This document shows, piece after piece, positions 37,922-60,737 of a DNA stretch of 64,000 nt (position 1 is its first letter; each line of letters starts with the position of its first letter). Below the pieces are notes generated by a model that made no database searches, was not told the DNA's origin, and saw only the letters and a list, made by a program, of their open reading frames with translations. Source of the DNA: a virus; the IMG/VR virus record IMGVR_UViG_3300027736_000020, positions 64,001 to 128,000 of that record, one strand, 5' to 3'. Position numbers and translations under genes: made by a program.

Positions 37922-38695
37922 TTACATCACCACTCCGGATTGTACGACATTTGTATCAAAATTTTCGGCTTTTATGACTGGAAGATTTTCCAAAGGCATA
38001 GAACTCATATCTTCATCATCTATTTTGTGTCCCGCTTGATTCAAATAATACAATTGTAAATAATTATAAATAATTTTATTATGAAGATCTGTTGCATGAA
38101 TGACTTCCGGAGTTGCTCGTAAAATCTGTGGTATTCCTACCATGGGCAACAACAAATGAGAAGGTTTGTCGCAAATACCCAATGCGACTAATGACGCCCA
38201 TATGTATGCTGACTCATTCATTCCCATGGATTTCTGTTCTTCAATGAGATTTTCATCATATCCTGCTCGCCAATGAGGACACGTATCCATGCTTGAGGCA
38301 TACACAAGAAACTGAAAGTTTTTTATTTTTGGATTTAGGCATTTGCGTTTCAATGGATCCTTGCTGTTTTTTTCAGAAAGATATATGCATCCAATGCATG
38401 ATTTAAATTGTAAAAAATACCACCAAACGACGTGTTTGCCATTTGGCATTTTTGGAAGATCTACTCTTTCAACACCCAAGCATGCCATCATGTCAACAAC
38501 TTGTTCTGGACGAGACAGTATGTTCTGAGGAAGAGGTGAACGGTATGGTTCCAATTTTTTGGATAAGTCATCCATGAAAAATTTTGCCCAATCCCTATTT
38601 GCCGTATCAGACAATCTTGATCCAAATTGATTTTCGACGATGGATGGCACAGGTATTTTTACGGAAAAATTACTTGAGACTGTAGGATTATTCAT
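37922..38695 (-). CDS. Hypothetical protein with Cys cluster
   Basis: Likely start at 38695 (ATGA overlap with the upstream stop). Contains CIGC...KC...TCPHW. Confidence 0.65.
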   Translation of the reverse strand: MNNPTVSSNFSVKIPVPSIVENQFGSRLSDTANRDWAKFFMDDLSKKLEPYRSPLPQNILSRPEQVVDMMACLGVERVDLPKMPNGKHVVWWYFLQFKSCIGCIYLSEKNSKDPLKRKCLNPKIKNFQFLVYASSMDTCPHWRAGYDENLIEEQKSMGMNESAYIWASLVALGICDKPSHLLLPMVGIPQILRATPEVIHATDLHNKIIYNYLQLYYLNQAGHKIDDEDMSSMPLENLPVIKAENFDTNVVQSGVVM

Positions 38696-41600: not shown

Positions 41601-42783
41601 AAATATACCCCGAAAACCTCATCGCGCTCCAAGGATTTGCATTTGGAGCACAAACTGCTTTATGTGGCAAGGCCATGTTTCTTGCTGCAGAATACACATA
41701 CATTGCCAGTTCTGACATCATGTATGTAGAAATAAATGACGCACAAGGTCGTGCGACATGTTTAATAAAATGCATTTCTTGAAAATTTGTGGATATTTGA
41801 CCTATTTTTTTCCCATTCTTGTCGTATATTTCAATGATCCAGCTTTCATCAAGCCCTGTAATGCCCCTGAATGTTCTGCAAGCTATTGAAAAAATTTTTC
41901 TTTTTTGATTATTCTTTATCTCACATCGAAGCGTATGCATGTCTTTATTGACATATTTTTGCCAATTTGAAGATTCTTTTACTTGCTCAAACACATACAA
42001 AAATGAATTTTTCCTGTTTTTCTTTCTTTCGTCCTCAGAAATGAATCCATTTGAATCAAAAATTATGGCTTTTTCCAGAAATTCTGCTTCAGCAATAATG
42101 GTGCTTGTTGACATGTCATTTGCAAGAGACATTTCAAAGTCATGATGGGGATGACGCATTTTTTGCGAAAATGTTGCCCTCATGTTTGGCAAAAAATCCA
42201 TATCCTGCTTTTCATACGACCATACGCCTGTTGAAAGATATGAGCCATCACCCCAATGTTCAGAAGTCTCATTCTCATCTCTGGATGTCATATCGGGATT
42301 TTTTACATAAAAATTGAATTTTCCTTTCTTTTGATAGGAAGAAAGAATATTCATCAGAAGTTTGTATTTTTCTGATATTGCTTTTCCAAATTTCAATATT
42401 TGATCTTTTGTGTAAATGTTTGATATAAGAGAAAGAAGCAATTGAACATCTCCGCTTGGAATATTTTTTTTGTTGCAATATGCGTACAGTTTCATGTAGG
42501 AAAATAATTTTCTTGATATTTCCAACAAATCATTTTCGGAAAAAACCTGAGGAGGAAAAATATTTTTTAGTTCATGCGCAAAAATTAATTCTTGATTCAC
42601 AATTTGCGGATCCTTGTTCAGGAAAGAAGGCAAAACGGAATCAATCGGCAAATTAAAAAATACAGGATCAAGTTTCTTGAACACAGAAATACTGGGAGAT
42701 TGAGCCTTATGCAAAATCTCAGAAAAACTTTTTAATTTGTCTGGAATGGAAAAAAATGGAATTAATGATTGCTTGTTTTCCAT
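38692..42783 (-). CDS. Large multidomain protein with HD phosphohydrolase domain and degenerate PARP-like C-terminal region
   Basis: 1363 aa. HD motifs VLTHSLNC / AALLHDIGK / IIRYHDAFG / YRCD at about 39760-40200 are clear. The ART-like pattern at about 38920-39370 is weaker. Confidence 0.8.
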   Translation of the reverse strand: MENKQSLIPFFSIPDKLKSFSEILHKAQSPSISVFKKLDPVFFNLPIDSVLPSFLNKDPQIVNQELIFAHELKNIFPPQVFSENDLLEISRKLFSYMKLYAYCNKKNIPSGDVQLLLSLISNIYTKDQILKFGKAISEKYKLLMNILSSYQKKGKFNFYVKNPDMTSRDENETSEHWGDGSYLSTGVWSYEKQDMDFLPNMRATFSQKMRHPHHDFEMSLANDMSTSTIIAEAEFLEKAIIFDSNGFISEDERKKNRKNSFLYVFEQVKESSNWQKYVNKDMHTLRCEIKNNQKRKIFSIACRTFRGITGLDESWIIEIYDKNGKKIGQISTNFQEMHFIKHVARPCASFISTYMMSELAMYVYSAARNMALPHKAVCAPNANPWSAMRFSGYISYVPSSSIGQVASKVSIIAPSYFPTRSMNPIANILDKQSHEMKNELLNPNIWWHTFLTGAIVKAISENSYRVEYPGSNFHVDVHWQHISKGHIVTLFNNFFEQVQEIFIAAEEEDRENIIGLVALAKAMKIKNAPDFTDFEYTVNNEILFEASLENMKSESILGKRVAPATITIPSVPISYSINDASSIIVKYGNMERVNGNLTDYVSIFEKNELLSLSPENNTIQDYKEFFSIVSNFYESQIISSKIKDQESAVKLINFVPIIHAVHTTAMNAKDKMLVPSLIKVTEFDIPANASDKKTYFDFIKVDNQKFNFSYSVRLHAERISKETPSPSKTKKVVPSDFSKIYSFSISCTDNNGNPIFLYKPERQFAFGNVSIFSSLQMIVCGYLPDFIFWVNTEGINAQKNMRISSGSYAKTSEKLFSASKTDTIEWEMPFLPDNTMMSAQYETVKSWLTRQFPSLKGMQQGPGHKNIDVLTHSLNCATLVDVTRPNGYCPAKEIQNDRSIRVLRVAALLHDIGKASREDGGVGGVSEEHAKYSSILAESFASEFFFNPEEKKMFMKIIRYHDAFGKAQTGKLGSVDDAISHLAKIAGDQHTAQMLYHVYRCDVDSIPEFGIEGKNVSEEISEHTFVSPEILLQMICEYMQINKFFPVNIEQIWESEKSMMAGKKIPTQNRKTILSGEFVQKVNDFNDGIPLFYGESVLHSYNPQYFKKMKTVINQIKTNPAISYARDLGMSYDGATGSIARCFVWTNKNSVNNMFFLGMKNYLGLSYSGLHALVNSPIKNKESIASIMSSINNYEKIVDDKYMIVFDYHMGKVIMQKDLEETYLAWKKWKQSKNGSSLFSLTLTNNDMFDMEKVALHMGYSTIINNDGTIVCADSSRIAIIGAYEVRANTSEVAPSDMASEKYYGDNPATISVLLPMGNKEKVLLPKLDHSEIFISNNHTHFLSNNVWNAKPMEEQPEKNMSR

Positions 42784-43470: not shown

Positions 43471-46400
43471 TCACGAATTTGCGGAACTTATTTGAGTGCA
43501 AGCGTTAAAAAATGGTTCACTTTGGTCGCCATTGATATGTCCAAGTATTTTTTTTGTCCATTCCGTAAAAGACAAAGTTACTCTTGCTGGATCTTTAAAT
43601 ACATCGTCGGGTATTTGGTCAGTATTTTTGCCATAATTTGAAAACCCTCCCCTAAATATGTATTTTACTTTTCCTGTTTGAGTATCCATGTGTTCTTGAA
43701 GCTCTTGACTTATTTGTTGAGGCATTGAAATGCCCATGTTTTCTAAATATTTTTTGTAAACATCTCCTCCTGTTGATCCATCATATTCTGAAGTAAGAAA
43801 AGTTCTCCAAAACATTGCTTTCATCATGCGATTTTGTTCGTTTTCGTCATCTGTTTCTTCCCGAATTCTTGCAACCACATCTGCTCTTGTGATGGGTGAA
43901 TCCGGACTATCAGTTTCCAGTTTTTTTTCTTTTATTCCATCAAAAAGTTTTCTTCTTATTCCTTCAAAGTCAGAATTATTTGCCCAATTCTCATACATTT
44001 CTTTTTCTTTGCTGTACACGCCATAGAGAGCAAGTACTTTGGATGATTCATCGTCAAAAGTTCCTATTCCCGCAGGACGAGTGCCAGTATTGGGAGTAAT
44101 TCCAAAATTATCAAAAAGTGAATTTACCTTGGCATTTCTTTCATCTTGCATATCAAGAATAAAATTCCATGTGTTTCTGCCATTGAAATTCAGTGGATTG
44201 AATTGAATTTGACTTTGTCCTGCTGCTTCAGATAGTTTATCAATCCATTGATATTTTTGTTTTTTATTCAAGTCACTAAATTTTTTTCCTTCAACAGTAA
44301 TTATCTTGAAATCGGTTAATTGCAGTCTTTGTGACGATCCATTTGTGTAACTGGAAATTACTTTTTCTATTACACTACGCCTTGGCGTATAACCAATAGC
44401 GTCTCGCGTCAATGTCGAGTCTCTTTCGATTTTTTCTTTCGAAACATCCTCTTTCAATGATTTTCCCTGTATTGATGTTTGATTATTTGGACTATACGAA
44501 GCTTCACAATGTTTGTCAACAATAGCTTTGATTGATTTTATTACAGTATTATACGAACCTCGTTCAGTAACCGGAATATTAGTCGCGAAGTCATCAACTT
44601 CAGGAAAAGGAGCACTACCATTTGGATTTGTTTTTAGATAAACATATCTCATGTATGCTTTTGCAAAGAAAATTGCTTTTTTCTGTTTCAACAATAGTGA
44701 TGGATCTGAAGATGCTAGATCTGAATCCTGTATCCCTGCAACGGCGTCTACATATTTTTTCCCGTAAAGTTGGTCAGTAGCCAATGTCATCAAACCGTCT
44801 ATTTGTTCACTAAGTGGAACGACAGGTGAGGTTCTGTTATTTCCTATATTGTTTGCAAACCCAACATTTGCTGCCATTCCCATTGCCAGATACATATGTT
44901 CCATATCTTTACTGCGATTGCCTGTGGTGGTTGTTCCAATTACAACAAATGTAGAAGGCCTACGTTGTGTTGCCGTCTCAAAATCTTTTCCTTGAAAATT
45001 TACACTGGAAGAAAAACCCAATTCTTTGCTTTTGTCTATTGTTCCACTTTTCCCATTCAAAAGTTTTGTTTTCCATCCATCATCGGTATCAGTATCTTTT
45101 GTTTTAACTGTTGTGTCTTGAGAAGCTCGGGCTTGCGGCAAGAATAAAATGTCATTGGCATCCTTGCTACTTGAAAAAGTTACTGCTGGGACAACCATTG
45201 AAAGATCCTTGCCTGTTGTTGTAAGTGATCTGGTCGGTATGGGAGCAAACATCAATGGACTTTGAGGAACAAAGTAAAGCATTACATTGGATTTGGCAAG
45301 ATTTTTAAACCATTGTTCTGCAAGTCGTGATATTTGTTGCGGTTGGCCAAGAAGACCTGTTATTTCTCTTGCTCTTTGCACTCTTCCGGAATTTATTCCC
45401 GAAAAATCTTCAGAACCATATCCATTATTTCTTCCAAATAAAGTTTGCATGGGAGTAATAAAATTATTTGCTTTTAGTCCCCAAACATGGTTTTTGTTTT
45501 CGTCGAATATTTTCGACAAAAAATTTGATCCGGGAAATACAACCTTTGGTTTTCCCTTGTCGTCACTTATTAATGATTTTACTTGTCTTACGCTGGAATC
45601 TACGGCGTCATCTGTCCAAGGACAATTTATATGTACTTCATCTCCTTTTGAAACAACATTGCTTGTAGATGCAGAATAATCTTCAAATGCATCTTGCGGA
45701 ATATTTTTCTGTGAATCATCATAAGTAAATTCAGGATATTGATCATGAGCATATCCGTCAATGTGACGAGGGTCTAGAGGGCTTCCATTTGGTTCGATAA
45801 CAGGCCCTGTTGATTCCATCAATCCCCTTGCAGACCCATTTATTTTTACTTTGCTAGCAAGGATTTTTTTTCCTCCGGCAATATTTGCACTTGCCTGTTC
45901 TTTGGCAATTGATTGAAATCTTTGTCTTCTTGCCGTATATTCGGCAAGAATAATCATTGATTGCACTTTTCCTGTACTGTCAACATAATTATTGAATTTT
46001 TTTATACCATTTCCGCTTGACACATTTGAAGGATAATAATACGTGTGTTTTGAAATTACAAATTTTTTGCCACCTAATCCTTCTCGAAACATCATTATTT
46101 GCTGGAGCATTACTGGCACTGTTGTTTGACCACCTGTTCTGTTCGTAGTTGTGTATGCTCTTGTTTGTCTTTTTACTTCAATACGAATAGGACTTGATGG
46201 TGCGCCAAGAACATACGTTGAAGATTTTATTCTTGGATCAAATCTCATTCTTTTTAACGATGCAATTCCTATCTGTTTTCTGTCAGATACATTTTCTTCT
46301 TCAGACAAACTTATTCCGTTGTTAAAATCATGAATTTGCTTGTTGCCGCCATATTCCGTAGAATAATTTAAATCATCAACATTCCATTTCCAGTAATTTT

Positions 46401-49400
46401 TTGGTCCGTTTTGCAGCCAAATCCCATTATTGCTTCTTTTTGGAATCACGCCTTTTGCTAGTGCCAAAACTCCTGAATTTCCCGGAGAAGTATCATTTGT
46501 ATCGGCATATATTTTTTTGCCAATTGCCATGGCTCGAACAATTGCTGACATTTTTCTTGAAGAAAAATGCGTTTGAAAAAGAACCAACACATTTGAAAGA
46601 CTTTGCTGAAGCTGCATTGATGGACTGAAACCATTTCTTTTTGTTTCGTTTGAACTTGATGCGTATTGCCAGTCAATTTTAGGTTTCTGAAAGTTTCCGG
46701 GAATTGTTTGCGTTTGTGTTACGTAATCAAACGCTCTTCGAAGAACTTCTGGAGGATATGGTGAAATAACCAAGCTTGATCCATCTCGTTCTATGCCTCG
46801 TTGATAATAATTGTGTTCCCATGATTGACGGACATCTTCTTTCCTGTACGGCGCAATAAATTTTTCTAGAATTGTTCCTCCTTGTCTTGCCTCCTCAAGT
46901 TTTGGTTTTAAATCCATCATCCTTGAGACAAGATCATTGAAAGAAGCGGAAAAATCTCTTTTTCCATCTTCACCTACAGAATATTTTATGCCATATGCTC
47001 CGTTTTCCAGAATAATTCTTTTATTACCGGAAATCAAGATATCTGCAAGCTCTCTTTGTTCATCAGAATAACTGCTTGAGTTTTTATGCCAGCTTTCAGG
47101 ATCGATTGTTGCAAGAATTCTTCCTTGATGAGTGGTGCTTCCTGCTGTTCTCATTGTGCCGGTATCGTAAGTTTTTCCAATTCTTGTTTCCGGTGTCTCA
47201 AACGCAATTGTTCCCAACGACATTCCTGACTGAAGCCTGTTTCTTTTAAGAAGATAATCAGCTGACGGAGATTCTCCGGGAAGCCTTTCTGATATGATCA
47301 ATCCTCCATTTGCAAGTATTTCATTCATGAGAGTAGTTCTCGCAACATCTTTTGTTTGCGAAGCATTAAACAAAACAGGAACATTTTCTGCGTCAGAATT
47401 TAACCCTTCTCCAAGAATTGCAACGGTTTTTCCGTATCCTGAAGGAGTTTTTCCGTCTGGAGACATTGCAAATTTGTGACATATTGAATCTGTTCCGTGA
47501 GCTAATCCACTTATCATCACCCAATTGTTTTGAGCAAATTTTGCTGCAAGTGATGCGGCAAAAACAAATCCATTCCCAATTAATTGCGTACCTTTTTTGA
47601 GATTTGCACCACTCCAACTGCCCGGTTTGTCAGTCCCCATATTTCGCGTACCAACTCCTCCAACAGTTAATGCCTGCCCACTTGCAAGCGAATAAAGAAG
47701 ATTTTGGCCACTTGCTTCCTGTTCCGCATTCAAACCGTTATGACGGATAAATAATAGTTGCGGGGCATCTTCGCCAATGTTTCTCAAAAGCGCGGGATAT
47801 TTTTCCATTGATAATGGAGTGACTATTTCAGTGTTGGTTCTTGCAGCCCAAGCTTTGCAACTTTCTGCAAGATTTTTCAAAATTCCATCTCTTGCCATCG
47901 GTTGCAATGAATAATCTCGAATCATGGACTCAATACCATCATCTGTGATAGAAGAATTTACCTGTTTGATAAATTTTCTTACATCATTTCCCCCATCTTT
48001 AAAAAGTTTTGTTATTTTAGTGTTTAATGCGGTGTCAATCAATCTTTTTTCAAAATCATCCAATGATTCACCGTTAACAAAATTCATTTCTTTTGTTCCG
48101 TTGGTGTAATCCTCCGGGTCTCTATTGAAATCAAATGATTTTTGAGAATCTGGAATAAACAAAACAGGATTGTCAAATTCATTTCTGTTTTCATATATCA
48201 TTTCACTGGGATCAAATCCTGAATATCCTCCATCATACACTTTTGAGGTATTTTCAGGAATTATTGAACACAATAAGAACTGTTGTCCAAATTCTTTTGC
48301 TTTCTGAATTGCATCTAATTCTTTTTTTTCTATTGCCGGAACAATGTGTTCTTCAAATAACTGTTCTATTGTGTCTGCGTTGACATCTTTTACAGTTTGA
48401 TCTGCAGAAATTTCTCTTCTATTGTCTGTAGAGTTTCTAGATATTCTTTCTTTTTCAGCCGTATTATCATCAAGTATCTTGGAGCCTTCACTCCATATTT
48501 GTGTCCATCGAGGATTCGTCCAATGAAGTCCCAGTTTATCCAATGTCATTGCAAGGTTTGTCGCTGCAATTCTTCTTTCCATCTGGCTTTGCGTCAAGGG
48601 TTTTTCCTTGGAGAGAAATGTTCGGGTTCCTTGTTGAGAAGTATTGTCTCTTGAATTTCCGGACGTTACGGTGACCCTTTGCCCTGCGGGTCGAGGAAAA
48701 TCTTCTCCAAGGAATCCTCTTTCGTCGGCAAGCATGCTTTTTAGAACTTCGACTTGATTTTTTCGAAAAGAAGGAATGGGATCTCCAAGAACTGAAGCTA
48801 CACTTTTGGTCGAGGTTATTGCTCCTTTGTTTCCTTTCATGAAATAAACAAGCGGAGAACCTCCCTGTATTCCCTCGTTGTCTTTAACAGGACCAAGTCC
48901 GGGAATCAATCCAGTTATTGCATCAGGCAAATCGATTGAATTTGCAGGCACTATTTGAAAACCGAGCATGTCTGCTGTAATAGCCATTTGATGGGCTTTT
49001 TCAACATGGTTTGATAGTGCTTCTTCGGGATTTTTTTCGCCAAAATATGAAACTCCATTATTTGAAACATGAAGTTTGTGCTCTAATACAATTTTTAAAA
49101 AATCATCAAGTGTGATTGACTTTTCTTCTATTTTTGCACTTTCTCTCGAATCAGCATTTTCATTATATGTTAAGCCATTCAATTCCTGATGTTTTTTGGC
49201 CAATGTATCCATTAAAGCAAACAGTTTTGTTCCTTCTTTGTTTTCATTCAACCAATGGTTATCTTTTATAATATCAGGTCGTTCTATTGTATCTGTTGTT
49301 TGCAGCGGATCTTGTTCTGAATTATATGTATTTCTATTTATGTTATCTTGATCATTAATAAATGATTCTGGAGTCAGGCTTCTTATGTCATCATCTGGAT

Positions 49401-50139
49401 TTTCTTCATCTGCTTGTTTTTGTTCCAGCTCAAGAGTTTCAGGAACATACGGATCTTGTTCGTCTCGTTCATATGATGATGCAGGATCATCTCTTATAAA
49501 TACGGTTTTTGGAACAAGAGACATTATCTCCATTCTCATTTGCTGTATAACAAGCGCCTGTAAAGCCATAGGAATGTATGCTATTCCATCCTTGATTTGC
49601 AATCTTGCTGTTGTTGAGGGTGCATCTTCATTCTTTGGCGAATATTGGAGTTTTTCAGACAATGATCTTACAAAGTCTTCAATATTTCCATGAGTTTCTC
49701 CATTGAGGCCTACTGATTTCAAGTAGTCAAAATTACCTGAAGCGGCTGTTTCAACAGCGGACTTTGCGTTTATTTTTCCTGAACTGGTGACATGAGAATC
49801 TAATCCTCCAACGGTTATCTGTCCATCGTCGTGATAATACGTTGGAACTCCATAATGAAATGCTTCCTCTTCATCTCCGTCAAACTCTTGATCTTGTCTG
49901 TCTTCATGAATGTCAGGCGTGGTTGCATCTCCATGCATATCCGCAACAATTGCAGAGGATTTTCCTCTCTCCGTTGTGACGGATTCATTTTTGGTAATTG
50001 ATCCCGAACTTCTTCCATATACCCATTCCCATGCTTCTGATCCATCCTCATGACGTACGCGTTTCCAAAACCCTACTCCTCCCCTGCTTCCGGGATTTTG
50101 AATTCTTCTGTATGGCTGAGGAAACTGAGGGTTAATCAT
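43471..50139 (-). CDS. Giant polyvalent protein with DprA/Smf (SLOG) domain
   Basis: 2222 aa. At about 47090-47820: KYPALLRNIGEDAPQLLF, VGGVGTR, ISGLAHGTDSICH, GKTVAILGEGL, GGLIISERLPG, KRNRLQSGMS, GTMRTA...QGR, a complete DprA Rossmann core. Confidence 0.85.
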   Translation of the reverse strand: MINPQFPQPYRRIQNPGSRGGVGFWKRVRHEDGSEAWEWVYGRSSGSITKNESVTTERGKSSAIVADMHGDATTPDIHEDRQDQEFDGDEEEAFHYGVPTYYHDDGQITVGGLDSHVTSSGKINAKSAVETAASGNFDYLKSVGLNGETHGNIEDFVRSLSEKLQYSPKNEDAPSTTARLQIKDGIAYIPMALQALVIQQMRMEIMSLVPKTVFIRDDPASSYERDEQDPYVPETLELEQKQADEENPDDDIRSLTPESFINDQDNINRNTYNSEQDPLQTTDTIERPDIIKDNHWLNENKEGTKLFALMDTLAKKHQELNGLTYNENADSRESAKIEEKSITLDDFLKIVLEHKLHVSNNGVSYFGEKNPEEALSNHVEKAHQMAITADMLGFQIVPANSIDLPDAITGLIPGLGPVKDNEGIQGGSPLVYFMKGNKGAITSTKSVASVLGDPIPSFRKNQVEVLKSMLADERGFLGEDFPRPAGQRVTVTSGNSRDNTSQQGTRTFLSKEKPLTQSQMERRIAATNLAMTLDKLGLHWTNPRWTQIWSEGSKILDDNTAEKERISRNSTDNRREISADQTVKDVNADTIEQLFEEHIVPAIEKKELDAIQKAKEFGQQFLLCSIIPENTSKVYDGGYSGFDPSEMIYENRNEFDNPVLFIPDSQKSFDFNRDPEDYTNGTKEMNFVNGESLDDFEKRLIDTALNTKITKLFKDGGNDVRKFIKQVNSSITDDGIESMIRDYSLQPMARDGILKNLAESCKAWAARTNTEIVTPLSMEKYPALLRNIGEDAPQLLFIRHNGLNAEQEASGQNLLYSLASGQALTVGGVGTRNMGTDKPGSWSGANLKKGTQLIGNGFVFAASLAAKFAQNNWVMISGLAHGTDSICHKFAMSPDGKTPSGYGKTVAILGEGLNSDAENVPVLFNASQTKDVARTTLMNEILANGGLIISERLPGESPSADYLLKRNRLQSGMSLGTIAFETPETRIGKTYDTGTMRTAGSTTHQGRILATIDPESWHKNSSSYSDEQRELADILISGNKRIILENGAYGIKYSVGEDGKRDFSASFNDLVSRMMDLKPKLEEARQGGTILEKFIAPYRKEDVRQSWEHNYYQRGIERDGSSLVISPYPPEVLRRAFDYVTQTQTIPGNFQKPKIDWQYASSSNETKRNGFSPSMQLQQSLSNVLVLFQTHFSSRKMSAIVRAMAIGKKIYADTNDTSPGNSGVLALAKGVIPKRSNNGIWLQNGPKNYWKWNVDDLNYSTEYGGNKQIHDFNNGISLSEEENVSDRKQIGIASLKRMRFDPRIKSSTYVLGAPSSPIRIEVKRQTRAYTTTNRTGGQTTVPVMLQQIMMFREGLGGKKFVISKHTYYYPSNVSSGNGIKKFNNYVDSTGKVQSMIILAEYTARRQRFQSIAKEQASANIAGGKKILASKVKINGSARGLMESTGPVIEPNGSPLDPRHIDGYAHDQYPEFTYDDSQKNIPQDAFEDYSASTSNVVSKGDEVHINCPWTDDAVDSSVRQVKSLISDDKGKPKVVFPGSNFLSKIFDENKNHVWGLKANNFITPMQTLFGRNNGYGSEDFSGINSGRVQRAREITGLLGQPQQISRLAEQWFKNLAKSNVMLYFVPQSPLMFAPIPTRSLTTTGKDLSMVVPAVTFSSSKDANDILFLPQARASQDTTVKTKDTDTDDGWKTKLLNGKSGTIDKSKELGFSSSVNFQGKDFETATQRRPSTFVVIGTTTTGNRSKDMEHMYLAMGMAANVGFANNIGNNRTSPVVPLSEQIDGLMTLATDQLYGKKYVDAVAGIQDSDLASSDPSLLLKQKKAIFFAKAYMRYVYLKTNPNGSAPFPEVDDFATNIPVTERGSYNTVIKSIKAIVDKHCEASYSPNNQTSIQGKSLKEDVSKEKIERDSTLTRDAIGYTPRRSVIEKVISSYTNGSSQRLQLTDFKIITVEGKKFSDLNKKQKYQWIDKLSEAAGQSQIQFNPLNFNGRNTWNFILDMQDERNAKVNSLFDNFGITPNTGTRPAGIGTFDDESSKVLALYGVYSKEKEMYENWANNSDFEGIRRKLFDGIKEKKLETDSPDSPITRADVVARIREETDDENEQNRMMKAMFWRTFLTSEYDGSTGGDVYKKYLENMGISMPQQISQELQEHMDTQTGKVKYIFRGGFSNYGKNTDQIPDDVFKDPARVTLSFTEWTKKILGHINGDQSEPFFNACTQISSANS
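48657..48686. repeat. 30-nt dispersed repeat, copy 1
   Basis: ttccggacgttacggtgaccctttgccctg; 29/30 identical to 56975..57004. Confidence 0.9.
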
Positions 50140-50429: not shown

Positions 50430-51110
50430 TTAGTCATCGTCTTCAGGATAATTTTGGTCGTCTATTCCGTCTTCATCTTGAATTGACCCAACTGCTGGCG
50501 GTCTGTAATGATCCGCAGAAAGAGTATACCCTTCTGGAATTTTTGGTGTTACATCAAAACCAGTGTATGGGTTCAGTTCATTTGGATGAAAATGCTCCAG
50601 AGGATGTATTCCAAGAGGGTTCGATCTCTTTATCTTACCCCGTCTATCTGAGTGCCTACCTGCTGGAGTTCCTTCTATTCCGGGATATTCAGTGTGAACT
50701 CCAAAAAATCCCAATATTGAGTGAGGTTTTGTCTTTTCAGCTTCTGGTGTTATTCTAAGTCCTCTTGTTTGTATCTCTTGCAATTTCTTGTATTCCTCTG
50801 GACTTGGAACGACATTTTGCGAATTGCCAGATAACCGTGCACTTAATCTGGAAAATATTGAAAATTCTCCGGGTGACAATCCCAACAATTCTGGATTCAT
50901 TTCTCCTTTTTTCGCTTCCGTCGATGATGGATAATAAGGATTTATTGGACGGATTGTTCCAGTATCTATTGTACCAGTATCAATTACATTTTCTTCTACT
51001 GAATCGTTAAGAGCGTCGGAAGGTAGTGTTCGGCCTTGGCCTAAATCTTCATCATCATCGTAGTCGTCGTCTATATCTTCAGTAACTGATGATTTTTTAA
51101 AAAAGAGCAT
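50430..51110 (-). CDS. Hypothetical protein, possible internal virion protein
   Basis: 226 aa. Begins MLFFKKS, nearly the same as the MLIFKKS start of the 2566-aa neighbour. Confidence 0.7.
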   Translation of the reverse strand: MLFFKKSSVTEDIDDDYDDDEDLGQGRTLPSDALNDSVEENVIDTGTIDTGTIRPINPYYPSSTEAKKGEMNPELLGLSPGEFSIFSRLSARLSGNSQNVVPSPEEYKKLQEIQTRGLRITPEAEKTKPHSILGFFGVHTEYPGIEGTPAGRHSDRRGKIKRSNPLGIHPLEHFHPNELNPYTGFDVTPKIPEGYTLSADHYRPPAVGSIQDEDGIDDQNYPEDDD

Positions 51111-51128: not shown

Positions 51129-54100
51129 TCATGAATTTTCTGTATACATAGATCTTTTTAGATTTATTTTTTCCAATAATTCCTCAAGAAAAGGAGACCT
51201 TCCGTTTGAAGCAGTGCATATATGCAATTCATTTTCCGCTCTTGTCATTGCAACGTAAAAAAGATTTTTTTCTTGTTCTCGTGCAATTTCGTAATCTTTT
51301 TCATCTTTGCTTTCTGAAATGCGACTGTGCGGCCACCTATCATCCGTTACATTGTACAAAAATACTGTTTCAAATTCAGATCCTTTTGATTGATGTGCGT
51401 TTATTACTACTACTCCGCTTTTCTGTTCTTCATCGTGAGGTTCACCCCCAAAGTCTTCTTGCATTTCTTGATACAAGGTCATATCTTTGGAAGATGGAGC
51501 AACTTCTATTTTTAAATTGTAAAGTCTTTTCCTGAGGTCTGCAGCTTCTTTATTGGTTCTGCAAATAATTGCCATTGGAGGAACAAACACCCCTGCTCCC
51601 TTGTCTGTCCAAGGTATACGAACTCGATCATCTGGCCGGGCTTCGGATCCAAATTTTTTTCTAATGATGCTTGCCATGTAATTATCTTGCTCATTCATGG
51701 ATGCTTTTCCACTTTTGCTTTTGGCATTGAAAATATTTACTGTCCCTGACGCAGATCCAATTGTATCCCCCATTTTTCCAGAAATCCAATTTCTGCCGTC
51801 AAAAATAGTTGCCAATTGTGCCAATATGTATCTTGCTCGATAATTTACGCCAAGCATGACATTTTTTACTTTTCCTCTTGTGGAACCATTAAATAATCCA
51901 TGCCATTTTTCAAAATTTGTCGCATCAGAGAATTCTGTATTTGCGCCTCTGAATCCATATATAGCTTGATGTTCGTCGCCAACAACGGTGAGATTTGCTC
52001 CGTTTGATGCTGTTACTGCCTTAATAAGTCTTCTTTGCATTAAATTTATATCTTGAAATTCATCAACCATTACATGACGATATCTCGCTCGTACGTTATT
52101 CCTATCGTGATTGTTGTTTTCAAGATGTTTTGCTACTTTTGATATTAAGTCAGAATAATCCAGTTGATTATTGCTAGAAAGCATTTCATTGTATTTATGC
52201 CATATTCTTTCCAAAACAGGATTTTCCTTAATTTCTGACATGTTTTCAGTATCTTTTGCAGCCTGTATCTTTGTTGCAATTGTGGAGGAAAGACTTCCTT
52301 CTCCGGTATTTAATGCTCTCAACGCTACTTGTTGAGGCAAAGTAAATTGATTTATTATTGCAGTAATCATCTCTTCTTGTTTGTTTGTTCCTACCAATTG
52401 CAAATCTGGATCAAATGCTTTCTTTGTTCCTGTTTTTGCATTGTAATTTATTCCATCTATATTTAAAGCATCTACACCAGTAATTAATGAAAGGGCAAAA
52501 GAATGTGTTGTTGCTATTGTTGGATTTGCTCTGTCATCATTTATGTTGCCTGTTTTGAACGATAAAATACCGTCTTGCTTGCTTTTGTCTCTTAATTCGT
52601 TGTCAGTAAGACCTTCTTGTGTCAAAAATGTTGCAAATTTTCCCTTTTCTGCCGTGAATGAATCTTTGACTCTTCTTCTTGCGTCCCGAGAAAAAGTCAA
52701 CATGAGTATTTGTTCTTGGGAAACTCCGTATAATGACGACAACATGAGCATCAAAGCAACCAATGATTTTGTTTTTCCTGATCCCGGAATTCCCTTAACA
52801 ATTGTAGGTCCTGTGTTGTCTTGTTTTATTGCTGCCAATTGCGTGTCATTAAGCATGTCTTCAAAATATTTCGTTATTGCAACTTCTCTTGTGGCCCCAT
52901 TTCTTCCCCTTATGGTTTGAGCAGCTGTAGTCAATGTCGGACTTTGTCTGTCTCCTGAATCTCTAACAGTATTAACGGGAATTCTTTCGTGATCTTCAAT
53001 TTTGGATCCATTAGTATTTTCTTGCATGAGATCCTCATATCCATCAGGATATCTTCCATTCTCAAAAGCATTTGTCCAATTTATTCTGTTTTTTGCTTCT
53101 CCTTGTTTTGCTATCCAAAACAGCCTTAAAACTTCTCTTGTCCTTTCTTCATCGTCTGCACTATCATCATTTATTGCTTTTAGTTTTTGTATCAATGGAA
53201 TAGATGTGTCAGTTTCCTTCAGTGCAATTTTAAGAATGTCTAAAGCGTCTTTTTTTGTATCATCATCTTGCATTGATTTTTCAACATAACTGTCGCACAA
53301 CTGCCAATACAAATCTGACAAAGGATTCTTTGATCGTGATCCCCAGAATATTGTTCCATCTGATGCTTTCCATGTTGTTTCTGCTCCATCTACAGCAGAA
53401 GAGCTTAATCCTTGACCGCCCGGAAGAGATTCTATTGAATTTTTGTTTCCTGAATGAATAACAATGTTTATTTTCAAAGATTTTAATATGTCAAGCAATT
53501 CCTTGCTAAAAGATCCAATGGTTTTTCTCATGTCTTGAGGAGAAATAGTCCAATAATCAGGTATGTCTGTTGTTGTTGCGCGAGAATAATGTTCTGGAAT
53601 AGTAAAAACATGATTTTTTAGAAACTCACCATGTTCAGGAAATTTGTCAAATATTCCATCTTCATTAATTCCTGCCCTCAATGGTGATGGACTTGATGTG
53701 ACATCATCAGCAATATTTTTTAGAATCCGCATTGAAGGAATTGTTGCTGCTTCAGAATTTATGATTGCTTGATGATTTCGAAGTAATTGATCCTGTGATC
53801 CGTTATTCAAAGAAGAAATAATTTTGAAAATATCCGTAATAGCATCTGTATATGAAGATTGTTCAGATTGCGGTGGAATTCTATATATAACATCACTTGG
53901 TGAAATCTTGTGAATTGCAAATTGTTTTTCAGTTTTTTCTATGCGGTCTTTTTCTTTTTGAGATTTATCAAACGCTTCATTTATTGCCGCTGTTCTTGTT
54001 TCCGGATCTTTATCATAGCTTCCATTGAACAATTGTTCGTTTTTACTAAATTCTTCAAATTCTGTTTTCAATGATAAAAGTGTAGTGGCTGCATCACTTA

Positions 54101-57100
54101 TTTCTTTTTTATCACTTCTTGCTAATTGTTCTAAATTTCCTTTTGAAAATGAGAATCCAAGACTATAGCCTTTTCTTTCGTCAAGAGCATACAATGTTCC
54201 TTCTGCCCTGTCTATGTCTTTTACTAGTGTCCATTTTTCGACATCTCTGGCATTTGTAAACGAATTTGTTGACTGATAAGGAAATCTCATGTTATCATCA
54301 TCAGGTTTTGCGTCTGTTTTAATTGCTATTTTAGATCCCGGCAATAACGATGCTCCATTCAAGATGGTGTTTGCGTTATGAGTATCTATAATTACAAAAT
54401 GAACAGCAGTTCGTCTTAATTTTTTTTCTTCGTCTTTTTTTAATTTTCTTCTCTGATCATAACTATTCGGATCTGCATCGTCCAATGCTTTTGGAGCGCT
54501 GAATCTACCAAACAACTCTTGTGCTCCACTCCATAATTTAGAAATTCTTCCTTGTTCTACTTCTTTGTCAAGATTTAATTTTTCGTTATTTTTTTTGCTG
54601 AAAAGTCCACTCATATCAAGATAAAGGCTTTTGGGGTCTGCAAGTCTTCCAAACATTTTTGAAAAAAATAGTGACGCATAATTTTTGTCTTTTTTGTCAA
54701 GAAGGGTTTGTTGATGCTGACTGTTTGGTTTGATTGCATCATCAGTATGATTGTCTTCGGATTCATAATCTGTATCTGAAACAACAGGTAACATTACAAC
54801 AGCAAAATTTCCTCTTGTCGCTACTATTCTCCCTATAGCACTAGGATTAACTCCTTCAGCTGCTAAGCTAGCCAAACCTTTTGTAAAAAATTCTTTTATT
54901 TCAGGATCAATGTTCCATCCAGTAAAGCTTTGCAACCTTTCAAGTTGTTGATTATTTGATAAATTAGCATTAATATTTCCATGATCTGCAATTTCTGAAA
55001 TTTGAGTTATTTCTGATGGCCGGAAAACGCCTAAATCTAACTGGGGAACATTTGTATTGCCCAATACTGCATCCAGCGTATTGTTTGCAGCACTTTTTAC
55101 ACTTGAAAAATTACTACTAAAAAGATTATTATCTGCTTTCATTTTATGCGACAGCAATTGCGCTTGATGTCTTATGGGTGTCATGTCAACCCAATATTTA
55201 GTATTGCCGTTGGCATCTTTTCCAGATATTACTTTCAATGAAATGCTTATTGAATTACCAGTGTTTGTGGTTGCCTGATTGCCATTTGCTGGATTTTCTT
55301 GATCTATCCTTTTTGTTCCAGAAAACGTCAATCCATTTATTGTAATAAATTTACCATTTGCCGAAAGACTAAACCCAAGATTTTGTCCTTCAGTCATTAT
55401 GACTCTGTCACCTACCTGTGCATCTGCATTGTCTGCAATAATTAATCCTTTCTTATTATTTATTTTATTTTTCAATCCATTTGTTACTATTTTCAAGAGC
55501 TCTGCTTTGCTGGTTATTGGTGTTTTTTCAGGTTGCTCGACCCCAAAAAAAGCAAGTGACCCATATTCGTCATTTACCAATGAATGTGGAAACACCCATT
55601 CATGTGCCAAGCTTGGCTTTTCTCCATAAATTTTTCTCTCATCATCGGTTACGGGAGAAACATTTAGAGCAGTTATTACGGATGCTACTTCAGCTGGCGG
55701 AACATCCTTGGGAAGAGCGGCAGGATGTGTAAATCCTGTTTGCAAAATTGTATTATCTTTTTCGGCTTCATTGATTTTGACCAAAATATCATCATTGTCA
55801 ATAAGCCTTCTTATGGTGACAGATGGATGTTCTCCGGCAGGAGAAACAATAGGACTAGCACTAATTTTTGCTTGTTTTGCGATAATCATTGAGGGACTAT
55901 CTGCTGGACCTACCGCGCCATTGAGCATCATTCCGTCTGCAGGTTCTTGTTGTATTAGATTTCCATTTACGTCAAGCATTTTAGGGGTTTCTGAATTTTT
56001 CAATGCAATTGCTGCAACAAAATGTTGATTAGCTGCATGTTGAGCCATCGTGTCTTCAACAATTGATAATGCATAATTATAAAGTGCTCTTTTTTGAGCA
56101 CTATCGCCGCCACGTGAAGCGATTTTTATTTTTTGTTCTGCGTTATACTCCTGTTTTGTTTTAGAAAGTGAATCAAGAATATTTTGTGAACTAATTGATG
56201 TTGAATCGAGCAATTCAATAAAATCTTTTTCTGATGGATTTTTTGGCTTTCCTCTTTTAAAAACTGTATATTTTGAATTTTCTCTTGTTTCTTTTATCCA
56301 TTTCTCAATTTTTTCTTGTAATTCTCCTGCAAGATTTCCTTCTTCGATTTTTCTTTTTAAAAGAACATACTTGTCACCATCACTATTGTGCTTTTCCCAA
56401 GCACTTATTTTTTTTCTATCTTCTATTTGATCTTTAAGTGCTCCATGATTTGTCCCTGAATTTGAGCGCAAAAATGACGCAATATATTCGTCATCGGTTG
56501 GTTCGTCATTCTTGAGTTCAAAATCAGGATTTTTTATTTCATCCGCTACTTCATATGTGACTTGCGATATGGGAGTTGGCGGAGCTTTTTTCCAAAATGG
56601 ACTAGTGGCAAAAAAACTTTTTTTCTGATCAGGATTCAGGCCATTAAGAGTATCGTCGAAATTTTTCGTTGATTTGTACAGTGATCCATCTGGATTTTCT
56701 TTGTATATGAGAACGTGCATTTTAGTAAAATCATTTTCAAATTTTACATGAGCAAACATTGTTTCAACACCTGTTGTTGGTGGCCTAAGTCTAAAGAATA
56801 AGCTGCCATTTTCCATTCGAATAGGGTCAGTTCCTAATTCCGGCGGTTCTGCAACGGAGAATTTTGACACATCAGAGGGAATGTCTCTATGAATATCTTG
56901 AAAAGCTCCTGCTGTTCCAATTGGTTCAGAACCATCTGGAAAATATTCGCGATCATTGCCTGCTATAGTGGTTATTCCGGACGTTACGGTGACCCTTCGC
57001 CCTGTTGCATCAACAGGAGCAACTATTCCGGGCTGCTCCCTCATGTATTGAAGTGCTTTCTTTTTGATTGTTTCAATATCTGCTTGTCCATTTCCATTAA

Positions 57101-58829
57101 AAGTCAAAAAATCTACAAGTTTTCTAGCATTTAATGTCCAAGTTCCACCTTTATGTCCAGACAAATTTCTGTTTTGAAAATCGCTCAAAGACTCCTGTTC
57201 TGTTCCCGGAGCAAAGATTCCATTATCTTCTGCATTTCCAAAAGCTTTTAATATGTCATTCCTTGTCTTGTCAGGAAGACTTGAAAATGCATCTTTCCAC
57301 TTTTGTTTTTCTTCGTCAGTTTCAAATAGTTTTCCAGGGGTAGTTTTCCATTTCGTATATAGTTCTCCAAAAGAAAGACTGCTGTTTCTTCGAGCAGCAC
57401 CTAGTTTTTTTATTACTTCTTGATGCCATCTTTCAATGTTTTTCTTAGCATTAGGCCATCCAAAAACCCCTCCAAATGGCAGTGCAACGCCAATGTTTCC
57501 ATTTAATCTTGTATCGGCTTCCGTTGCCATCATTGATTTGCTTACTGCTTGATTCCTTAATATTGATGCATTGCTCCAAGCTTCAGTAACTTTTCTTGCA
57601 AGATTAGATATGTCTTCTGAATCGCTATCCTTTGCCGGAATTAAATTGTCAAGTATTTCATTGAGATGTTCCTTTCTTAGAGACCCTTGTACCCATATAC
57701 CATCTTCGTTTTTTTCAAATCTATCAGCGTGAGAAAGTATTTTGTCCTTATTGTCATCAGTTAATGCTGCTGAGTCCAGCAATCTCTTAAAGTCTTCGTG
57801 CTTATACAGATCAGCAAGGTGCTCGCGAACGGTATTCGGGTCAATATTCGACCCTTCGGTTGCTTCTGGAAGAGGAGCCAACAAACTGTCATCATGCCCT
57901 ATAAAATGATGCAAAGGAATTCCCAACAGGCTTGTTGGTTTATACAAATGATCAGTTAACTTTTGATGGTTTAAACTTAATAAACCACCTTTACGTCCAT
58001 TTCCTTTTTCCCAACCAAAAAAAGTCTTGAGAAGTTTTTTGGTTCCATCAGTCATCGAATGCCAATAAATATGTTTTTCAACCTTGTCTTGATCGGTTCG
58101 TACTTGGGTTTTTTCTGGATCAAAGCCGTTAATTGGACTAAACCCAATAAGACCAGATGCAGAAACAAAAACACGTTCTAAAATGCCTTGACTTATTGTT
58201 TTCTTTCCAAGATCAATTATTTTTGTTGGGAAACCTTCCGAATGAATGAACTTCATTGGTTGTACTTCCATTAGTACGCTTCCACCAGCATGAGCAATGG
58301 ACTTGTCTGATTCTGGTCCGTGTGTGTCAATTGTTCCATCTTCAATCGGAGGATATGTTGTCTTGGGAAATTTTACAAATCTTTCAACTAGTCTTTTTCC
58401 TGTGTTAGTTATCCTGTTCCATATGCCACGTTGTTCCGCTTGTTCTGGATGAGCAAGTCCTATTTGATCTCTGGTTAGCTGTACTCCATCTGCGGAAATT
58501 TTAGTAACTTTTGGATGTAGTATTCTAGTCATAACATCGGTTTGTTGTGGCTCAGAAGCCAAATGAGTAACATGAATTCCAACTGTTTCTCCAGCAATGT
58601 TTACATGATTACCAATATGCGTTAGTAGTCCTTTGTTGGTATCAAGAGGATGAACAGGACCTGATAATTCAACGTTATGAATTGGAGCATCACTTTTACT
58701 AAGGTCATCTGCGTTCAGTTCCAAATCACTTGCTCTGTTAGGTATACTTTGTGATTTGAAAAATAATCCAAATTTTATTTTTTTTGAAGAGAAAAAATCT
58801 TCGTAGATGCTTTTCTTAAAAATCAGCAT
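51129..58829 (-). CDS. Giant polyvalent protein with C-terminal UvrD/Rep/PcrA-type SF1 helicase
   Basis: 2566 aa. At about 51150-52860: LNDTQLAAI (Q), GIPGSGKT (I), LTFSRDA (Ia), TTHSFA, VMVDEFQDIN (II), VVGDEHQAIYGFRGA (III), NYR (IV), ICRTN (IVa), AHQSKGSEF (V), FYVAMTRAE (VI). The N-terminal ~1990 aa are unrecognised. Confidence 0.9.
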   Translation of the reverse strand: MLIFKKSIYEDFFSSKKIKFGLFFKSQSIPNRASDLELNADDLSKSDAPIHNVELSGPVHPLDTNKGLLTHIGNHVNIAGETVGIHVTHLASEPQQTDVMTRILHPKVTKISADGVQLTRDQIGLAHPEQAEQRGIWNRITNTGKRLVERFVKFPKTTYPPIEDGTIDTHGPESDKSIAHAGGSVLMEVQPMKFIHSEGFPTKIIDLGKKTISQGILERVFVSASGLIGFSPINGFDPEKTQVRTDQDKVEKHIYWHSMTDGTKKLLKTFFGWEKGNGRKGGLLSLNHQKLTDHLYKPTSLLGIPLHHFIGHDDSLLAPLPEATEGSNIDPNTVREHLADLYKHEDFKRLLDSAALTDDNKDKILSHADRFEKNEDGIWVQGSLRKEHLNEILDNLIPAKDSDSEDISNLARKVTEAWSNASILRNQAVSKSMMATEADTRLNGNIGVALPFGGVFGWPNAKKNIERWHQEVIKKLGAARRNSSLSFGELYTKWKTTPGKLFETDEEKQKWKDAFSSLPDKTRNDILKAFGNAEDNGIFAPGTEQESLSDFQNRNLSGHKGGTWTLNARKLVDFLTFNGNGQADIETIKKKALQYMREQPGIVAPVDATGRRVTVTSGITTIAGNDREYFPDGSEPIGTAGAFQDIHRDIPSDVSKFSVAEPPELGTDPIRMENGSLFFRLRPPTTGVETMFAHVKFENDFTKMHVLIYKENPDGSLYKSTKNFDDTLNGLNPDQKKSFFATSPFWKKAPPTPISQVTYEVADEIKNPDFELKNDEPTDDEYIASFLRSNSGTNHGALKDQIEDRKKISAWEKHNSDGDKYVLLKRKIEEGNLAGELQEKIEKWIKETRENSKYTVFKRGKPKNPSEKDFIELLDSTSISSQNILDSLSKTKQEYNAEQKIKIASRGGDSAQKRALYNYALSIVEDTMAQHAANQHFVAAIALKNSETPKMLDVNGNLIQQEPADGMMLNGAVGPADSPSMIIAKQAKISASPIVSPAGEHPSVTIRRLIDNDDILVKINEAEKDNTILQTGFTHPAALPKDVPPAEVASVITALNVSPVTDDERKIYGEKPSLAHEWVFPHSLVNDEYGSLAFFGVEQPEKTPITSKAELLKIVTNGLKNKINNKKGLIIADNADAQVGDRVIMTEGQNLGFSLSANGKFITINGLTFSGTKRIDQENPANGNQATTNTGNSISISLKVISGKDANGNTKYWVDMTPIRHQAQLLSHKMKADNNLFSSNFSSVKSAANNTLDAVLGNTNVPQLDLGVFRPSEITQISEIADHGNINANLSNNQQLERLQSFTGWNIDPEIKEFFTKGLASLAAEGVNPSAIGRIVATRGNFAVVMLPVVSDTDYESEDNHTDDAIKPNSQHQQTLLDKKDKNYASLFFSKMFGRLADPKSLYLDMSGLFSKKNNEKLNLDKEVEQGRISKLWSGAQELFGRFSAPKALDDADPNSYDQRRKLKKDEEKKLRRTAVHFVIIDTHNANTILNGASLLPGSKIAIKTDAKPDDDNMRFPYQSTNSFTNARDVEKWTLVKDIDRAEGTLYALDERKGYSLGFSFSKGNLEQLARSDKKEISDAATTLLSLKTEFEEFSKNEQLFNGSYDKDPETRTAAINEAFDKSQKEKDRIEKTEKQFAIHKISPSDVIYRIPPQSEQSSYTDAITDIFKIISSLNNGSQDQLLRNHQAIINSEAATIPSMRILKNIADDVTSSPSPLRAGINEDGIFDKFPEHGEFLKNHVFTIPEHYSRATTTDIPDYWTISPQDMRKTIGSFSKELLDILKSLKINIVIHSGNKNSIESLPGGQGLSSSAVDGAETTWKASDGTIFWGSRSKNPLSDLYWQLCDSYVEKSMQDDDTKKDALDILKIALKETDTSIPLIQKLKAINDDSADDEERTREVLRLFWIAKQGEAKNRINWTNAFENGRYPDGYEDLMQENTNGSKIEDHERIPVNTVRDSGDRQSPTLTTAAQTIRGRNGATREVAITKYFEDMLNDTQLAAIKQDNTGPTIVKGIPGSGKTKSLVALMLMLSSLYGVSQEQILMLTFSRDARRRVKDSFTAEKGKFATFLTQEGLTDNELRDKSKQDGILSFKTGNINDDRANPTIATTHSFALSLITGVDALNIDGINYNAKTGTKKAFDPDLQLVGTNKQEEMITAIINQFTLPQQVALRALNTGEGSLSSTIATKIQAAKDTENMSEIKENPVLERIWHKYNEMLSSNNQLDYSDLISKVAKHLENNNHDRNNVRARYRHVMVDEFQDINLMQRRLIKAVTASNGANLTVVGDEHQAIYGFRGANTEFSDATNFEKWHGLFNGSTRGKVKNVMLGVNYRARYILAQLATIFDGRNWISGKMGDTIGSASGTVNIFNAKSKSGKASMNEQDNYMASIIRKKFGSEARPDDRVRIPWTDKGAGVFVPPMAIICRTNKEAADLRKRLYNLKIEVAPSSKDMTLYQEMQEDFGGEPHDEEQKSGVVVINAHQSKGSEFETVFLYNVTDDRWPHSRISESKDEKDYEIAREQEKNLFYVAMTRAENELHICTASNGRSPFLEELLEKINLKRSMYTENS
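56975..57004. repeat. 30-nt dispersed repeat, copy 2
   Basis: ttccggacgttacggtgacccttcgccctg; 29/30 identical to 48657..48686. Confidence 0.9.
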
Positions 58830-59798: not shown

Positions 59799-60737
59799 AT
59801 GCCACAATCTTTACGATTAAAAAAAGCATTAAAAAATTTAAATCACAGTAATTTGTTGCTTGAAAACATTAATGAGCATTTAACAATTTCTGTTTCTGGT
59901 GAAGAAGATCTTGAAAAAAGCCTTGGCAAGAACAGGGCTCCACAAAAACGTCCGACAAAAATCACTTCTTCTGCAGCATTTGAGGGGCACATAGGAACTG
60001 GAGTTCGCCCTTCGGCAAAATCAACCATGGCGAACAAAATCATTTCCTCCCTTATGGGAGGATCATCCTCACCTGCCAACGGTTCCTCGCCATTTCCTGC
60101 GATCACTTTTTCTGGACCATCAAAATCCCTTGGAGAATCCAAGGAAGACTGGCAATCTCATCCTAACTGTTCCGTTGGATCATTTGCTTTTATTCAACAT
60201 CCATACAAGCATCAACAACCCGTTTGGACACGAATCATTTCAATAGGAAAGCATGGAATACAAGCAAATGAAACCAGTGGACATACGCACAATGTGCGAT
60301 GGCCACACATTCTGGATATTCAGCCTGTTATTGGTCATGGCATTCATCCTGCTGAAGACAAAGAAGTAGTCATTGATTTACACAAGATGGGGGCACCACT
60401 TGAGCACGATAGCAAATTGTCTCATGCAGATTTGATGCATGCTGAAGAATATCTTCGTCAATTGAATCTTCCAATAATATCAGATCTCATTCATGGAGAA
60501 TTGGAAGATTCAGGTTCGGCATACGATGAGTTAAGAAATATTCATGCTCCACTTGATCCAGTTTCCATGACTGAAGATACTAGTGGCAAGAACAGCGTAT
60601 TGCCTGCGCATTTGCAGGAACTCATTGATGAGCTTTCTTCCATGGGCAAACCCATTGACGTTGAAAAACTTTCCAAGCTTCCCAAAAAAGATATTTTAAA
60701 AGTTCTTGAATATTATTTTAAGGATTCAAATATATGA
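59799..60737 (+). CDS. Hypothetical protein with small SH3/KOW-like beta region
   Basis: 312 aa; GGAG RBS. VGSFAFIQHP...WTRIISIGKHGIQA...GHTHNVRW looks like a small beta barrel. Confidence 0.7.
   Translation: MPQSLRLKKALKNLNHSNLLLENINEHLTISVSGEEDLEKSLGKNRAPQKRPTKITSSAAFEGHIGTGVRPSAKSTMANKIISSLMGGSSSPANGSSPFPAITFSGPSKSLGESKEDWQSHPNCSVGSFAFIQHPYKHQQPVWTRIISIGKHGIQANETSGHTHNVRWPHILDIQPVIGHGIHPAEDKEVVIDLHKMGAPLEHDSKLSHADLMHAEEYLRQLNLPIISDLIHGELEDSGSAYDELRNIHAPLDPVSMTEDTSGKNSVLPAHLQELIDELSSMGKPIDVEKLSKLPKKDILKVLEYYFKDSNI

Follow-up and report, generated by a model that had tools for sequence, protein, structure and literature searches.

What would a UvrD/Rep-type helicase that lacks the 2B subdomain do at the end of a giant phage protein? 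The question is raised by P0001, a protein of 2566 amino acids (aa) encoded in the window, by which we mean the whole stretch of DNA that was analyzed (64,000 nucleotides, nt; positions 64,001 to 128,000 of IMG/VR record IMGVR_UViG_3300027736_000020). The record comprises 184,088 bp, is rated 97% complete, and represents an uncultured phage. An initial annotation of the window had proposed that the C-terminal tip of P0001 is a helicase with intact motifs and no 2B, naturally de-repressed and suited to working alone right after ejection.

Helicase motifs and fold

By its sequence and predicted structure, the C-terminus of P0001 is a genuine motor module of the superfamily 1A (SF1A) UvrD/Rep/PcrA type, which is represented in Pfam by PF00580 with PF13361/PF13538. 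The Pfam family UvrD-helicase (PF00580) matched aa 1993-2300 (E = 4e-41), and the Q motif and motifs I, Ia, II, III, IV, V, and VI were all found (Table 1). The initial annotation had listed every SF1A motif as present, and its coordinates were exact. All positions that were invariant in 70 UvrD-like sequences, both catalytic and in contact with single-stranded DNA (ssDNA), were retained in P0001. In query numbering, these were Q48, GxGKT, the TF of motif Ia, T158/H160, DExQD, D336/Q339/Y342/R345, N380/R382, R475, H530/K533/G534/E536, and R581.

The AlphaFold2 (AF2) model of aa 1950-2566 (pLDDT, the predicted local distance difference test, 86.7; predicted template modeling score, pTM, 0.88) has tandem RecA-like domains, 1A and 2A, with 1B inserted in 1A. 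When the model was aligned with solved structures using VIA-align, the scores were Z = 30.2 for UvrD (2is4_A; root-mean-square deviation 3.2, 462 of 646 residues), Z = 29.6 for Rep, Z = 29.5 for PcrA, and Z = 21.2 for HelD; sequence identity of the module to solved structures was 22-26%. Extra residues were found between motifs Ia and Ib (58 vs. approximately 24), between Ib and II, which corresponds to 1B (148 vs. approximately 127), and between IV and IVa (94 vs. approximately 72). The extra stretch between Ia and Ib was modeled with low confidence and was variable among the giant relatives of P0001 described below.

Absence of 2B and shortening of the pin

In canonical helicases, 2A is interrupted between motifs IVa and V by the 2B subdomain (approximately 170 residues); P0001 has no such insertion. 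From R2424 in motif IVa to A2478 in motif V we counted 54 residues, close to the 50 or so that had been estimated initially. In the alignment of 70 sequences this interval measured 56 residues in P0001 and 53-60 in five other giants; 15 further short forms had 24-60 residues, and 49 canonical UvrD/PcrA-like relatives had 175-219. The initial annotation had put the canonical interval at approximately 200. Only profile positions 280-349 of the 350 in UvrD_C were matched (at aa 2466-2541), and positions 1-279 were unmatched. A phmmer search against the PDB placed query residue 417 at UvrD 320 and query residue 513 at UvrD 543, that is, approximately 127 residues fewer in P0001. The AF2 model, which superimposes well on UvrD, Rep, and PcrA, places one short helix at the 2B site (503-511 in model numbering), between the strand (470-474) and helix (477-489) of motif IVa and the strand of motif V (524-528); the part of UvrD left unmatched in the structure alignment is approximately the size of 2B. 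A charged linker of approximately 34 residues replaces it, and across the giants this linker is conserved in length and variable in sequence. On this combination of alignments and modeling, 2B is absent from the helicase module of P0001, and the difference is far beyond chance.

The region after motif VI is also reduced. From motif VI to the S-P/R-F motif there are 17 residues vs. 23-27 in most relatives, and the alignment with UvrD ends at UvrD 617, short of the hairpin tip, with approximately 10 residues fewer than UvrD 618-627. At the site of the pin, the AF2 model has one long strand (582-591 in model numbering) and no hairpin. The spacing, the end of the UvrD alignment, and the single modeled strand together indicate that the pin is shortened.

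A family of giant proteins

When 1.84 billion representative proteins were scanned, full-length relatives of P0001 were found, all on metagenome contigs. The family (2240-2616 aa) comprises six 90%-identity clusters from independent metagenomes. The relatives are P0003 (2565 aa, 94%), P0124 (2505 aa, 44%), P0125 (2616 aa, 37%), P0128 (2240 aa, 31%), and P0131 (2255 aa, 29%), and all of them carry the helicase C-terminally. Each matched P0001 in one unbroken stretch, or in two stretches for P0131; the six giants are homologous over their whole length and form one clade (support 99). A giant family carrying a 2B-less SF1A motor at its C-terminus is previously undescribed. No giant relatives were found in IMG/VR, where the only matches were to the helicase domain at approximately 25% identity.

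The initial annotation had described the helicase as tethered to approximately 1990 aa of unrecognized sequence. This part indeed has no recognizable relatives: the N-terminal 1950 aa or so gave no match in Pfam, PHROG, or PDB profile searches and no shorter homologs outside the giant family, and an ESM Atlas search with aa 1690-1960 gave no usable match. Outside the helicase, the most conserved block lies at aa 1789-1830. Its conservation across the giants equals that of the helicase motifs, it matches no known family, and it may be a second domain of the giant. The AF2 model of aa 1620-1960 (341 aa, 11 sequences) was too poor for a fold search (pLDDT 47.8). A complex prediction for the helicase module and upstream aa 1690-1949 scored 0.00, which gives no answer and is evidence neither way.

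Frequency of 2B loss

Short spacing between motifs II and V was observed in 21 of the 257 relatives in which both motifs could be located. Some of these were free-standing proteins (450-490 aa), and others, of 700-830 aa, had a large insertion in 1B. On the best maximum-likelihood tree, which was built without the linker columns, the 2B-less state required seven changes, at least two of which were forced by strongly supported branches. Among loci fetched by pattern search, short spacing was present in 9 of 40 helicases on viral contigs vs. 2 of 68 on metagenome contigs, one of the latter two being a giant relative (a small, pattern-biased sample with near-duplicates). Several of the short-spacing viral helicases were helicase-IV-like, with Helicase_IV_N, a UvrD core, and a zinc ribbon. 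A viral structure library also contained many compact UvrD-like helicases of 409-545 aa, which, judging from their length, would be too short to hold a full 2B. By these sequence comparisons and the literature on TgaH (see below), absence of 2B is a known, recurring natural variant. More unusual than the missing 2B are the giant carrier itself and the conserved module of helicase, DprA, and HD giants beside the head genes.

Genomic context

The gene for P0001 lies in a run of co-oriented minus-strand open reading frames (ORFs) extending from 59829 down to approximately 2181. Between 59829 and the major capsid gene at 27521 all ORFs are on one strand, and a gap of more than 30 nt occurs at only one place. 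Given its sheath, major head protein, and protease genes, the phage is of the myovirus type. Its capsid protein shares only approximately 23% identity with the capsid proteins of Bacillus SPO1-like, Bacteroides DAC, and Thermus phages. A megablast search of 24 kb against phage and plasmid collections gave no match. No UvrD-type domain other than that of P0001 was found in the 97%-complete genome.

P0001 is followed by an acidic 226-aa protein, by P0002, a giant with a DprA domain, and by a third giant with an HD (phosphohydrolase) domain. In the window, the genes of this module are 0-26 nt apart or overlapping, and beyond them the tight packing extends across the neck region as far as the genes for protease, scaffold, and capsid. 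The gene context of the giant relatives was taken from one metagenome locus, L045. There, two small ORFs are followed by a 2240-aa helicase giant, a 2236-aa homolog of the DprA giant, a 230-aa ORF, and a homolog of the 1363-aa giant. The L045 proteins are only 22-32% identical to those of the window, and the order of the giants is nevertheless kept; over its N-terminal 650 aa, the 1363-aa giant shares 32% identity with its positional counterpart in L045. A tblastn search of cultured phages with the 1363-aa and 2222-aa giants returned ordinary DprA genes only and no giant relatives.

Four proteins of the window start with M-(L/I/K)-x-(F/L)-(K/R)-K-S: P0001, the acidic 226-aa protein (tag at 51090-51110), a 524-aa protein, and a 649-aa protein of the tail region. 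This MLxFKKS-type tag may be a sorting or processing signal. Looser forms of the tag occur in other genes of the genome, and in the giants a second copy resembling L-F-F-K-S follows approximately 15 residues after the first.

Several further observations were made in this region. A GC-rich 30-mer (29 of 30 nt identical) is present inside both giant genes, at 48657-48686 and 56975-57004. Read on the coding strand, it encodes a peptide, G-(R/Q)-R-V-T-V-T-S-G, shared by P0001 (approximately aa 609-618) and P0002 (approximately aa 486-495), which are otherwise unrelated, and this peptide is partly conserved within the giant family. GC content is 0.43-0.52 over the tail and head genes (1-34000) and drops to 0.34-0.39 from approximately 34000, that is, from the giant-gene module onward (34000-62000); the late operon may thus consist of two halves with separate histories. 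As called mechanically, the minus-strand ORF that opens the giant operon (start 59829) and the first plus-strand ORF (start 59799) share 31 nt (59799-59829) in a head-to-head overlap. At least one of these two starts probably lies further downstream, and the region is a divergent switch.

Table 1 Features of the helicase giant, its neighbors, and related phage helicases (positions in the window unless a locus is named)
Feature	Position (nt)	Strand	Evidence or remark
Giant protein P0001, 2566 aa, one open frame	51129-58829	-	ORF call
Heptapeptide MLIFKKS, start of P0001	58809-58829	-	Kept in all six giants (M-L/I-x-F-K/R-K-S)
Conserved block, aa 1789-1830 (IVIHSG ... TTW ... DGTIF.G)	53340-53465	-	Invariant columns, conservation profile
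SF1A UvrD-like module, aa 1993-2566 (1A, enlarged 1B, 2A, without 2B)	51132-52853	-	Pfam, AF2, structure alignment
Motif I (Walker A) GIPGSGKT, aa 2013	52770-52793	-	G, G, K, T (nearly) invariant in 70 sequences
Motif Ia, aa 2044		-	Motif search
Motif II VDEFQD (Walker B, DExQD box), aa 2255	52050-52067	-	D, E, Q, D invariant
Motif III VGDEHQAIY(GFRGA), aa 2283	51957-51983	-	Motif search and alignment
Motif IV VNYRA, aa 2328	51834-51848	-	N380, R382 (query numbering) invariant
Motif IVa CRTNKE, aa 2423	51546-51563 (RTN 51552-51560)	-	C, R, T invariant in six giants
Linker replacing 2B, approximately 34 residues, aa 2439-2472, charged, one short helix (TLYQEMQED)	51414-51515	-	Interval counts, model
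Motif V AHQSKGSEF, aa 2478	51372-51398 (AHQSKG 51381-51398)	-	H, K, G, E invariant
Motif VI VAMTRAE, aa 2526	51234-51254	-	R581, A582 (query numbering) invariant
Shortened pin region after motif VI	51189-51239	-	Spacing, UvrD alignment, model
Acidic 226-aa protein between helicase and DprA giants, starts MLFFKKS	50430-51110	-	No family match
DprA-domain giant P0002, 2222 aa, central DNA_processg_A at aa 858-1032	43471-50139	-	Pfam, E = 4e-22
Third giant, 1363 aa, HD domain at aa 871-983	38692-42783	-	Pfam, E = 4e-6
524-aa protein, MKKLKKS	36345-37919 (tag 37899-37919)	-	N-terminal tag
Head maturation (prohead) protease	30898-31944	-	Family match
Acidic scaffold-like protein, 532 aa		-	In the same minus-strand run
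Major head protein	27521-29266	-	Family match
Tail sheath	22428-25460	-	Family match
649-aa tail-region protein, MISFRKS	15500-17449 (tag 17429-17449)	-	N-terminal tag
Phage helicase-IV-like proteins, 926-1110 aa (IMG/VR)	L005:901-3678, L006:6742-10071, L026:8315-11152		II-V spacing 173-174, C-terminal topoisomerase-type zinc ribbon

Possible role of the giant

The reading that we prefer, and to which we give an even chance of being right, is that a reduced SF1A motor carried by a packaged giant acts as a tethered single molecule after delivery. By fold and motifs, the last 575 or so residues are a working-type DNA-dependent ATPase motor in reduced form, and in a small family of giants from uncultured freshwater-type myoviruses the form without 2B and with a short pin is the ancestral one. 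The gene for the helicase giant comes first in a set of three (UvrD-like, DprA-domain, and HD-domain) that would be transcribed together and that lies immediately upstream of the genes for neck, protease, scaffold, and capsid. The giants would most likely be late products that are packaged in the head and enter the cell along with the DNA. Circumstantial evidence fits such packaging, namely the size of the giant, its co-orientation with the head genes, the conserved three-giant module, and the shared N-terminal tag. N4 virion RNA polymerase and T4 Alt are precedents for packaged enzymes. Once delivered, the tethered motor would move 3′ to 5′ on ssDNA, with either unwinding or translocation only being possible. 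A motor of this kind would be free of autoinhibition by 2B, and neither 2B-2B dimerization nor the partners that bind 2B, by which cellular UvrD, Rep, and PcrA are switched on, would be available to it, so it would be either always competent or controlled in another way. On this analysis, virion delivery and activity of P0001 as a lone monomeric helicase are plausible.

The premise taken from known enzymes in the initial annotation agrees with the literature. 2B acts as an autoinhibitory element, the Rep monomer becomes active once 2B is deleted, and both dimerization and activation by MutL, PriC, or RepD operate via 2B (PMC13238157). On naked DNA, Rep without 2B is the faster unwinder, but it displaces bound proteins poorly and does not work as an accessory helicase in vivo (PMC6158625). 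As for the proposal of a de-repressed helicase suited to ejection, its parts concerning the missing 2B and the intact motifs stand, and the operon shared with head genes fits packaging; the special adaptation to ejection does not follow, because 2B loss is common and has occurred repeatedly.

Several points weigh against the preferred reading. Forms without 2B are common in free-standing cellular and phage helicases, and the loss need not relate to ejection. The poor protein displacement by Rep without 2B would limit some of the roles proposed for early infection. The pin is reduced in length, and the gating helix is lost along with 2B, as is the GIG motif; for GajB, in which these three elements are missing too, no unwinding was observed in vitro (PMC10681800). 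The approximately 1950 upstream aa could regulate or cap the motor, and no cultured relative carrying the giants was found.

Three other explanations were weighed. P0001 could be an intracellular enzyme, a late-made recombination, repair, or replication-restart factor acting with the DprA and HD giants, whose place beside the head genes reflects transcription timing only. We consider this somewhat unlikely. As the sole UvrD-like helicase of the genome, P0001 would serve as do the free-standing UvrD/PcrA/Rep-like helicases that many phages encode for their own DNA metabolism, which the DprA and HD domains also fit; however, replication enzymes usually sit in early or middle modules, and the size of the giant, its long unrecognizable regions, its co-orientation with the head genes, and a tag shared with likely virion proteins suit packaged cargo better (PMC5512222). 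It is unlikely, and slightly more so, that the module is an ATP-driven translocase or switch and not an unwinding helicase. Such a protein would move on or clamp DNA or another macromolecule, and might act by threading or pulling the genome as it enters, or by remodeling a nucleoprotein complex; in HelD and GajB, the same core functions without classical unwinding. The reduced pin, the missing 2B elements, and the behavior of GajB argue for this explanation, as does HelD, a remodeler that shares the core. However, motifs Ia, Ic, IV, and V, which bind ssDNA, have been lost from HelD, whereas the ssDNA-binding motifs are all kept in P0001. Moreover, Rep without 2B is a better helicase than Rep, and a 2026 review doubts the role of the pin as a wedge (PMC13238157).

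The least probable of the three explanations, which we judge improbable, is that the motor is not de-repressed at all, being held in check until proteolysis or ejection by an upstream domain or by the conserved acidic linker lying in the DNA groove. The strongly conserved block 160-200 residues upstream of the helicase and the charged linker of conserved length are consistent with such control, and head proteins are often cut by the prohead protease, the gene for which is present in the same run. Positive support was nevertheless not found, and the model of the upstream domain was poor.

Extending the preferred reading to all three giants is a good deal more doubtful. They would then form a virion-delivered DNA-processing kit for the first minute of infection, made up of a constitutively active monomeric helicase without 2B, a DprA-type ssDNA and RecA-loading module, and an HD hydrolase, and this kit would open, protect, or recombine incoming DNA ends, or disarm host defense, before phage gene expression. 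If this were true, such ejected phage enzymes would make up a class that has yet to be described. The conserved module of giants beside the head genes may in any case widen the list of phage-carried enzymes. In the current model of the UvrD family, 2B silences monomers, and activation needs 2B-2B dimers or 2B-binding partners; a conserved natural enzyme without 2B, present as one copy per huge carrier, offers a ready test of the bare 1A-1B-2A core. Recurrent loss of 2B, more frequent in viral contigs in our small sample, is a natural category that deserves a systematic survey.

Comparison with known systems

Polyvalent proteins are giant multi-enzyme proteins whose genes lie beside those for virion components and which are believed to be packaged and then injected (Iyer et al. 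2017, PMC5512222). P0001 resembles them in being a giant with an enzyme domain, co-oriented among virion genes (protease, scaffold-like, capsid, and sheath), but each phage giant described here shows one recognizable domain. Scans of P0001 with Pfam and PHROG found no MuF, portal, or polyvalent-specific domains. UvrD-like SF1 domains have been reported in giant polyvalent proteins of actinomycete plasmids, where they are close to cellular ones and occur in conjugative contexts (PMC5512222).

Helicase IV/HelD shares with P0001 a UvrD-like 1A-2A core without the 2B insert. The continuity of 2A in HelD would follow from its domain description (1A-1, insert, 1A-2, then 2A) together with our spacing counts. 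HelD differs in having a characteristic N-terminal domain and arms, whereas P0001 gave no match to Helicase_IV_N (PF12462) and keeps the ssDNA motifs Ia, IV, and V. GajB is UvrD-like, matches P0001 in sequence, and likewise lacks the gating helix, the GIG motif, and the pin. It was rejected as a natural example of a helicase without 2B, since it retains a small divergent 2B (residues 306-416); it works with the nuclease GajA, and no GajA-like gene is present among the neighbors of P0001. Matches of P0001 to the PADLOC profiles GajB and RTasHel were uninformative, since controls matched alike, which reflects generic UvrD similarity.

TgaH, the DarTG-associated helicase of system Liu-DS3, is a UvrD-family protein with a predicted structure lacking 2B (bioRxiv 10.64898/2025.12.08.692795; NAR PMC13069673). 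Like the module of P0001, it is a natural 2B-less helicase of this family, a likeness known from its description and not from sequence comparison. TgaH is a free-standing bacterial defense component beside DarT and DarG, neither of which was matched among the neighboring ORFs scanned, whereas the module of P0001 is the tail of a giant in a head-gene operon. The engineered Escherichia coli Rep without 2B resembles P0001 in its continuous 2A, with a short linker in place of 2B, and in having the same core and motifs as UvrD, Rep, and PcrA. The form found in P0001 differs from it in being natural and conserved, in its shortened pin and extra insertions in 1B and 2A, and in its fusion behind approximately 1990 aa.

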